The position numbers and the translations under genes are program-made. The notes under the pieces were generated by a model that was not told the DNA's origin, ran no database searches, and saw nothing but the letters and a program-made list of their open reading frames with translations. From NCBI RefSeq assembly GCF_003334405.1, contig NZ_QOWM01000058.1: a stretch of 676 nt of DNA; one strand, given 5' to 3'. This stretch comes from Escherichia coli (lineage in GTDB: Bacteria; Pseudomonadota; Gammaproteobacteria; Enterobacterales; Enterobacteriaceae). This document shows positions 1 through 676 of this stretch, piece after piece. How positions within the stretch are numbered: the first letter of the stretch is position 1; every line of letters begins with the position of its first letter.

Positions 1-676
1 GTAAGTCACTGTGTGGATTATCATAACGGTAGCGGGTGATATCGCCGTCAGGGGCAGTTTCCTGAATCAGACGGCCCAATTCATCATATTCCCGGCGCAA
101 TTCCAGCCCGTCAGGCCCGGTGGCTGACGTTAACTGGTTGTGGTGGTTATAGTAAAACGCCGATGCCCTGCCATCCGGCGTGGTTATGCGCGTGATGAGG
201 CCCGTCACCACATCCGGGCTGTACTCTGTTGTCCTGCCTGCGGCATCCGTCTGTGCCCTGAGCCTGCCCACGGCGTCAAACTGACTCTGCGTGACGCTGC
301 CGTCCGCGTGTTCCTTTTTCACCACCCGCTTCAGCCCGGCTTCGCCCTGCGTGTGCAGCACTTCACGGCGGTCCAGGCTGTCGGTGATGGTGATGCGGTC
401 TTTCTCATACTGATACGTGTAGCTTAAGCCTGCCGGGTTTAGCTGTTCTGTCACCCGCCCGTCGCTGTCGTAACGGTAACGGATTTCCGGCCGGCCCGTG
501 TGACGGTGCGCCACCATCCGGCCCCGGTATTTATCATCGTAAGTAAAGCTGCGCACCTGTTTGCCACTACGGTCATACACCACCGCCAGTTCGCCGCGTG
601 GCGTCCAGCCATAGCGCACCAGCGGCGCGGCAGGTAAATTCTCCGGGTATTCCGGGTCGTGCGTCAGCCACACGGC
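1..676 (-). CDS. Rhs-family YD-repeat core protein (polymorphic toxin scaffold), internal fragment, partial at both ends
   Basis: Hand translation of the reverse complement, with codons ending at plus position 676 (base 1 is a partial codon), gives 225 residues and no stop: AVWLTHDPEYPENLPAAPLVRYGWTPRGELAVVYDRSGKQVRSFTYDDKYRGRMVAHRHTGRPEIRYRYDSDGRVTEQLNPAGLSYTYQYEKDRITITDSLDRREVLHTQGEAGLKRVVKKEHADGSVTQSQFDAVGRLRAQTDAAGRTTEYSPDVVTGLITRITTPDGRASAFYYNHHNQLTSATGPDGLELRREYDELGRLIQETAPDGDITRYRYDNPHSDL. It contains repeated YD-repeat signatures (YxYD followed by G/R-rich turns), which I recognise from memory as E. coli-type Rhs core (rhsA/B/C/D-like); I cannot tell which paralog from this fragment, so no symbol is given. 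Third-codon positions are strongly G/C-biased in this frame (about 20 of the first 25 codons), supporting the frame. Window GC is about 60% by hand count. No start or stop codon lies in the window. Confidence 0.93.

Follow-up and report, generated by a model that had tools for sequence, protein, structure and literature searches.

Which gene runs through this stretch of E. coli DNA, and what does its presence say about the locus from which the stretch comes? The stretch comprises 676 bases and is referred to below, at its full length, as the window. Six-frame translation of the 676-base window gives exactly one stop-free frame, frame 0 of the minus strand (reverse complement, window positions 2-676), which is translated into 225 residues with zero stops; the five remaining frames contain 6, 8, 10, 13 and 15 stops. 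The first-pass annotation had described a minus-strand frame as the only long one spanning the full window, and this was borne out with 225 codons free of stops; furthermore, re-translation revealed neither a stop nor a frameshift in this frame. (Note that the program-made ORF list contains no window-spanning ORF, because ORFs that stay open past the window ends were left off this list.) A frame open over at least 224 codons was found in 33 of 5000 mononucleotide shuffles of the window, and the analytic probability of such an open frame, for a single frame at 60% GC, is ~5e-4. By itself, the open frame is only moderately improbable at 60% GC, i.e., suggestive and not decisive, and it is therefore the homology evidence that decides the identification.

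The translated window was compared with protein family models. The NCBIfam model RHS_core (NF041261, equivalog) aligns with it collinearly over model positions 301-525 of 1261 (E 2.2e-128, 429.9 bits). The whole-protein cutoff of this model is 2000 bits, and the window remains below it because it is a 225-aa fragment corresponding to 18% of the model length; full-length K-12 RhsA reaches 2647 bits against the same NCBIfam cutoff. The multiple YD-repeat motifs that had been expected from a profile search were obtained as well: Pfam RHS_repeat (PF05593) has five matches with E <= 1e-3 in the window translation, plus a sixth weak one, and NCBIfam TIGR01643 (YD_repeat) matches in four stretches (E 7e-21; 73.8 bits vs a cutoff of 15.8), the best of them being residues 117-152. 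In a motif scan of the 225-residue translation, YD dipeptides are located at residues 34, 46, 69, 197 and 218, and the canonical YxYD pattern at residues 67 (YRYDSDGR) and 216 (YRYD). The YRYDSDGR motif (window nucleotides 455-478) begins two residues upstream of the repeat at residues 69-100. The repeat at residues 197-219 corresponds to model positions 1-23 of 38, as it is cut by the window end. The features in window coordinates are as follows:

2-676, minus strand: internal fragment of an rhs core ORF, 225 codons (open frame, RHS_core match, 100% DNA identity to rhsA/rhsB).
500-601, minus strand: weak YD/RHS repeat, residues 26-59, including the YD dipeptides at 34 and 46 (Pfam RHS_repeat E 0.56, not significant alone).
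377-472, minus strand: RHS/YD repeat, residues 69-100 (Pfam RHS_repeat E 7e-6).
230-328, minus strand: RHS/YD repeat, residues 117-149 (Pfam RHS_repeat E 9.4e-4).
164-280, minus strand: RHS/YD repeat, residues 133-171 (Pfam RHS_repeat E 8.4e-8, full model 1-38).
107-205, minus strand: RHS/YD repeat, residues 158-190 (Pfam RHS_repeat E 4.6e-6).
20-88, minus strand: RHS/YD repeat, residues 197-219, with YRYD at 216 (Pfam RHS_repeat E 3.4e-6).

These YD repeats are protein-level and degenerate, and they are not DNA tandem repeats; the only tandem repeats detected in the window at the DNA level were two trivial matches of ~2 copies with a length of 10-11 nt.

Across its full 676 bases, the window DNA shows 100% identity with two genes of E. 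coli K-12 MG1655, rhsA and rhsB (positions 9001-9676 of the K-12 rhsA locus record, L001, and 12631-13306 of the K-12 rhsB locus record, L002), so that the near-identity to enterobacterial Rhs cores foreseen in the first-pass annotation is full identity for these two genes. It corresponds to nucleotides 877-1552 of the rhsA gene and thus to residues 293-517 of the 1377-aa RhsA, and to the same residues in RhsB. The identity to K-12 rhsC is 96.45% at the DNA level (24 mismatches, no gaps) and 96.0% at the protein level. With a probability of roughly 0.97, the window stems from the interior of an E. coli rhs gene of clade I in the sense of Jackson et al. 2009, i.e., the RhsA/B/C(F) subfamily.

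Of 5426 complete E. coli genomes searched with megablast, 3885 contain a match to the segment; the matching places add up to 12129, and a matching genome has between 1 and 7 of them (median 3). In 972 records of these complete genomes, the best match has an identity of 99% or more, and among the matches listed, 25 of 25 lie under intact annotated genes for rhsA, rhsB, rhsC or 'RHS element core protein'. Two of the 12129 matching places are plasmid-borne, the remainder being chromosomal. In one genome (NZ_CP130447.1, positions 3035222-3036027), the match is joined from two pieces, spans 806 bases against the 676 of the query and reaches a higher summed bit score, which suggests a local duplication or overlap in its rhsB. 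An attempt to assign the window to a single rhs paralog or strain failed, since K-12 rhsA and rhsB, as well as rhsC of other strains (see below), contain it without any difference. Hence, the statement that the window marks its locus as a polymorphic toxin element holds with respect to the kind of element, but what is marked is a family of loci (rhsA, rhsB and, in some strains, rhsC) and not one locus. The segment is a known one, and its annotation is correct in thousands of public genomes; that the window itself is not novel had been recognized from the start, and it is indeed identical to known E. coli Rhs core genes. The rhs family was reportedly described in 1984, among the earliest repeated-gene families found in E. 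coli K-12. As part of an old and well-annotated E. coli family, the segment carries little weight as a discovery.

Could the relevant feature lie on the opposite strand? The longest plus-strand ORF in the window is GTG-initiated and encodes 95 aa (140-427), and just upstream of it there is one sigma-70-like site (124-153, plus strand; CTGACG, an 18-nt spacer and TATAGT), vs 0.1 such sites expected in shuffles. An antisense ORF or an antisense promoter would then be the feature of interest, and we give this reading almost no credence. Antisense ORFs of such length are expected opposite a gene with 60% GC and 70% GC3; NCBIfam models give no match to the 95-aa ORF at E <= 1, and no plus-strand annotation is present at the window position in the five rhs locus records inspected. 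The promoter-like site is a single consensus match at 9 of 12 positions and is probably due to chance. Furthermore, an Rfam scan of both strands of the window (E <= 1) yielded no RNA elements, and no terminator-like sites were found in the window. The antisense ORF 140-427, having neither a family match nor an annotation, was dismissed as a side effect of the high GC content of the gene.

As neither end of the ORF is visible in the window, its source might also be a pseudogene or 'silent cassette', i.e., an rhs core fragment that is decayed or orphaned, rather than a full-length functional gene. Partial core fragments do occur downstream of the main rhs gene, and the K-12 annotation contains a 'RHS repeat-associated core domain-containing protein, missing N-terminus'. 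However, orphan core fragments keep only the 3' end of the core, whereas the window is located far upstream, at residues 293-517; it matches each K-12 rhs locus once, and this in the main gene only. The 225-codon frame is without defect, and the intact annotation of all 25 of the matches listed points in the same direction. An orphan origin was rejected, because the K-12 orphan fragments do not contain the window segment, and a decayed fragment in general appears very improbable to us. The orphan fragments themselves can be seen downstream of K-12 rhsA-yibA (L001, 13151-15725), where a string of rhs core-end fragments with internal stops is interleaved with small ORFs, namely yibG (sel1 repeat) and a frameshifted Imm57 immunity gene. 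They are displaced toxin/immunity cassettes of the type described earlier (PMC2935791, PMC3150448).

The full-length K-12 proteins show what surrounds the window segment. K-12 RhsA starts with MSGKPAARQGD and thus has a literal P-A-A-R at residues 5-8 (encoded within L001 8125-9024). Its residues 2-20 match positions 51-69 of 70 of the Pfam PAAR_motif model weakly (E 0.13), and the N-terminus looks like a truncated PAAR domain. After this PAAR tail, DUF6531 is matched significantly at residues 46-123. At the other side of the protein, the Rhs-associated core (TIGR03696, Rhs_assc_core) occupies residues 1170-1247 and ends with DPLGL (the DPxGL boundary) at residues 1243-1247, followed by a C-terminal tip with an Ntox34 toxin domain. 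The window itself contains no start, stop, DPxGL boundary or toxin part. The proposal that it belongs to the conserved shell and not to the variable part is correct, given its position in the RHS_core model (301-525 of 1261), more than 700 residues before DPxGL. In Hill's original scheme, the first part of the window counts as core. In the scheme of Jackson et al. 2009, the same part belongs to the 'clade-specific N-terminal domain', outside a more narrowly defined 'core domain' (PMC2935791).

The division between shell and tip is sharp in the paralog comparison: the cores of K-12 RhsA, RhsB and RhsC are 96-100% identical, whereas their tips share 13-18% identity right after DPxGL. The G+C content is 60.2% for the window (GC3 70%), 61.6% for the core, 40.2% for the tip, 33.7% for yibA and ~52% for the chromosomal flanks; with 60% GC, the segment is compositionally foreign to the E. 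coli chromosome. The K-12 values fit the pattern known for Rhs elements, in which a G+C-rich core is combined with an A+T-rich tip and downstream region (PMC2935791).

The conservation of the core extends far beyond the window. K-12 rhsA (L001 8125-12258) and rhsB (L002 9947-14182) are free of mismatches between gene nucleotides 82 and 1892, and no more than 28 are present across the first 3700 nt. A perfect repeat of 1.8 kb is thus present at two positions of the K-12 chromosome (rhsA and rhsB), with the whole window inside it. Because several kb of the core are near-identical between the paralogs, they represent a substrate for homologous recombination, and the recA-dependent unequal crossover between rhsA and rhsB is the source of the name 'rearrangement hot spot' (PMC2935791, PMC3150448). 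Besides, the rhsC gene of strain M217 (L005 8125-12318) is identical to K-12 rhsA/B from about gene nucleotide 750 to 1890, the window segment included, and agrees with K-12 rhsC (L003 12806-16999) at the 5' end, in the distal core and in the tip, i.e., this is a mosaic gene. The mosaic looks like the result of a gene-conversion tract between paralogous cores; note that gene conversion between clade I loci was deemed infrequent (Jackson et al. 2009, PMC2935791). As a multi-copy, near-identical repeat of several kb, the sequence is a possible source of errors in assembly and read mapping, and it favours chromosomal rearrangement.

The surroundings of the rhs genes vary as well. Each paralog has its own neighbour, which is yibF in the case of rhsA, nikR in that of rhsB and ybfA in that of rhsC. 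Genes for transposases of the ISAs1 family (H-rpt/ISEc1), either intact or decayed, are present at the distal end of the K-12 rhsB (L002 7860-8996) and rhsC (L003 7732-10137) elements. In E. coli ECCHD184, an IS5-like ISKpn26 element directly follows rhsA (L004 12330-13310), and the region from yibA to yibH, located behind rhsA in K-12, is absent in its entirety. The RhsA of this strain has 1388 aa and an altered tip with 78.7% tip identity to K-12.

What the segment may contribute to the protein can be predicted from solved structures. In a PDB sequence search, window residues 12-222 align to chain residues 213-422 of Tse5 of P. aeruginosa (8cp6) with a whole-sequence E of 2.6e-38. Ten further solved Rhs shell chains were matched with E 1e-21 to 1e-24, and teneurin-like YD shell proteins were matched more weakly (E 6e-11 to 3e-3). 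The cryo-EM structure of Photorhabdus Rhs1 reveals a hollow central beta-barrel with two plugs that close it, one N-terminal and the other a C-terminal aspartyl protease; the C-terminal toxin is enclosed inside, and toxicity needs two aspartyl autocleavages (PMC8636562). By homology to these structures, the window residues (RhsA 293-517 of the ~1250-residue core) would form successive YD-repeat beta-hairpins that, together with ~700 more core residues, wind into a closed beta-sheet shell, of whose wall the window would make up roughly the N-terminal third. The Rhs-associated core domain, a putative aspartyl autoprotease plug ending with PxxxxDPxGL, would seal the C-terminal end of the shell, and the short variable C-terminal toxin (Ntox34 in K-12 RhsA) would be held inside. 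This toxin is neutralized by the protein that the following gene encodes, which is yibA in K-12. In accounts of the work of Vlazny & Hill 1995 given in PMC3150448, the C-terminal region of rhsA is toxic and stops stationary-phase cells from recovering, and the downstream ORF yibA neutralizes it. For clade I proteins, the shell fold, the encapsulation of the toxin and the autocleavage are thus predicted from the literature and from homology to solved Rhs structures.

How such a protein might reach its target is a separate question, on which the window itself is silent. The first-pass annotation noted that Rhs toxins are often delivered by type VI secretion. This is true for Rhs proteins generally, as most characterized Rhs effectors are carried on the T6SS spike by a PAAR domain (PMC8636562, PMC6730261), but for clade I the evidence is weak: the N-terminus has a PAAR tail only, and vgrG and eagR are lacking at the five loci inspected. 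In fact, none of vgrG, eagR (DUF1795) or T6SS genes could be found within ~8-9 kb of the rhs gene at the five loci examined (K-12 rhsA, rhsB and rhsC, ECCHD184 rhsA and M217 rhsC). A T6SS is absent from the K-12 and B strains of E. coli (PMC6730261), and the linkage of rhs and vgr 'is not true in E. coli' according to Jackson et al. (PMC2935791).

It may be, then, that the clade I YD-shell protein is not a T6SS effector, and that it uses another export route, acts at the cell surface, or is effectively silent in T6SS-less strains such as K-12. The N-terminus, which covers only positions 51-69 of the 70-position PAAR model (E 0.13), the missing vgrG, eagR and T6SS neighbours, and the lack of a T6SS in K-12 and B would fit this proposal. 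Nevertheless, the literal PAAR at residues 5-8 and DUF6531 are typical features of the N-terminus of T6SS Rhs proteins, and all Rhs shell structures matched by the window are T6SS effectors. Moreover, apart from K-12 and B, the majority of E. coli strains carry T6SS genes elsewhere in the genome (PMC6730261), and the part of the work of Ma et al. 2017 that is reported in PMC6730261 relates 'neighborless' E. coli Rhs-CTs to T6SS2-linked Rhs. T6SS delivery of the clade I Rhs protein is plausible, and we regard a protein outside the T6SS as unlikely, although deserving some weight. A T6SS-independent delivery route or role of RhsA/B/C is conceivable, because the PAAR domain is truncated, vgrG and eagR are absent from the loci, and intact 4-kb ORFs are kept in the T6SS-less K-12; to us this appears more doubtful still.

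For the locus, the presence of the segment means that it flags a polymorphic toxin/immunity locus, with the variable tip and the immunity gene located ~2.2 kb downstream of the window. The toxin tip and the immunity gene are the sole potentially novel content at such a locus, and both are outside the window.

Among known systems, RhsA (WP_000015300.1) and RhsB (WP_000015298.1) of E. coli K-12 share with the window the frame, the repeats and the G+C-rich composition, without any difference, and K-12 RhsC (WP_000015200.1) shares its family and register and differs at 24 nucleotides. The solved T6SS Rhs effectors Tse5 (8cp6), Photorhabdus laumondii Rhs1/Tre23 (7pq5), Salmonella bongori Rhs (8qjb-d), Tse15 (8uxt) and the 'Rhs family protein' 7q97 possess a homologous YD-repeat shell, and the mechanism expected for the family of the window would be the same, with a toxin in a beta-shell and aspartyl autocleavage (PMC8636562). 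These effectors are distant in sequence, though, and either their N-termini comprise a full PAAR or prePAAR-TMD or their loading takes place via VgrG and chaperones, whereas E. coli clade I proteins have only a PAAR tail and DUF6531 at the N-terminus, and their loci are without vgrG/eagR neighbours. The YD shells of teneurins (7bam, 9ifo) are built from the same YD-repeat block, but their relationship to the window is far more distant; the TcB-TcC shells of Tc toxins are related YD shells as well (PMC8636562). Teneurins and Tc toxins are, respectively, eukaryotic proteins and proteins of insecticidal complexes, with other N- and C-terminal modules, and the C-terminal domain of teneurins is located outside the shell, unlike that of Rhs proteins (PMC8636562).
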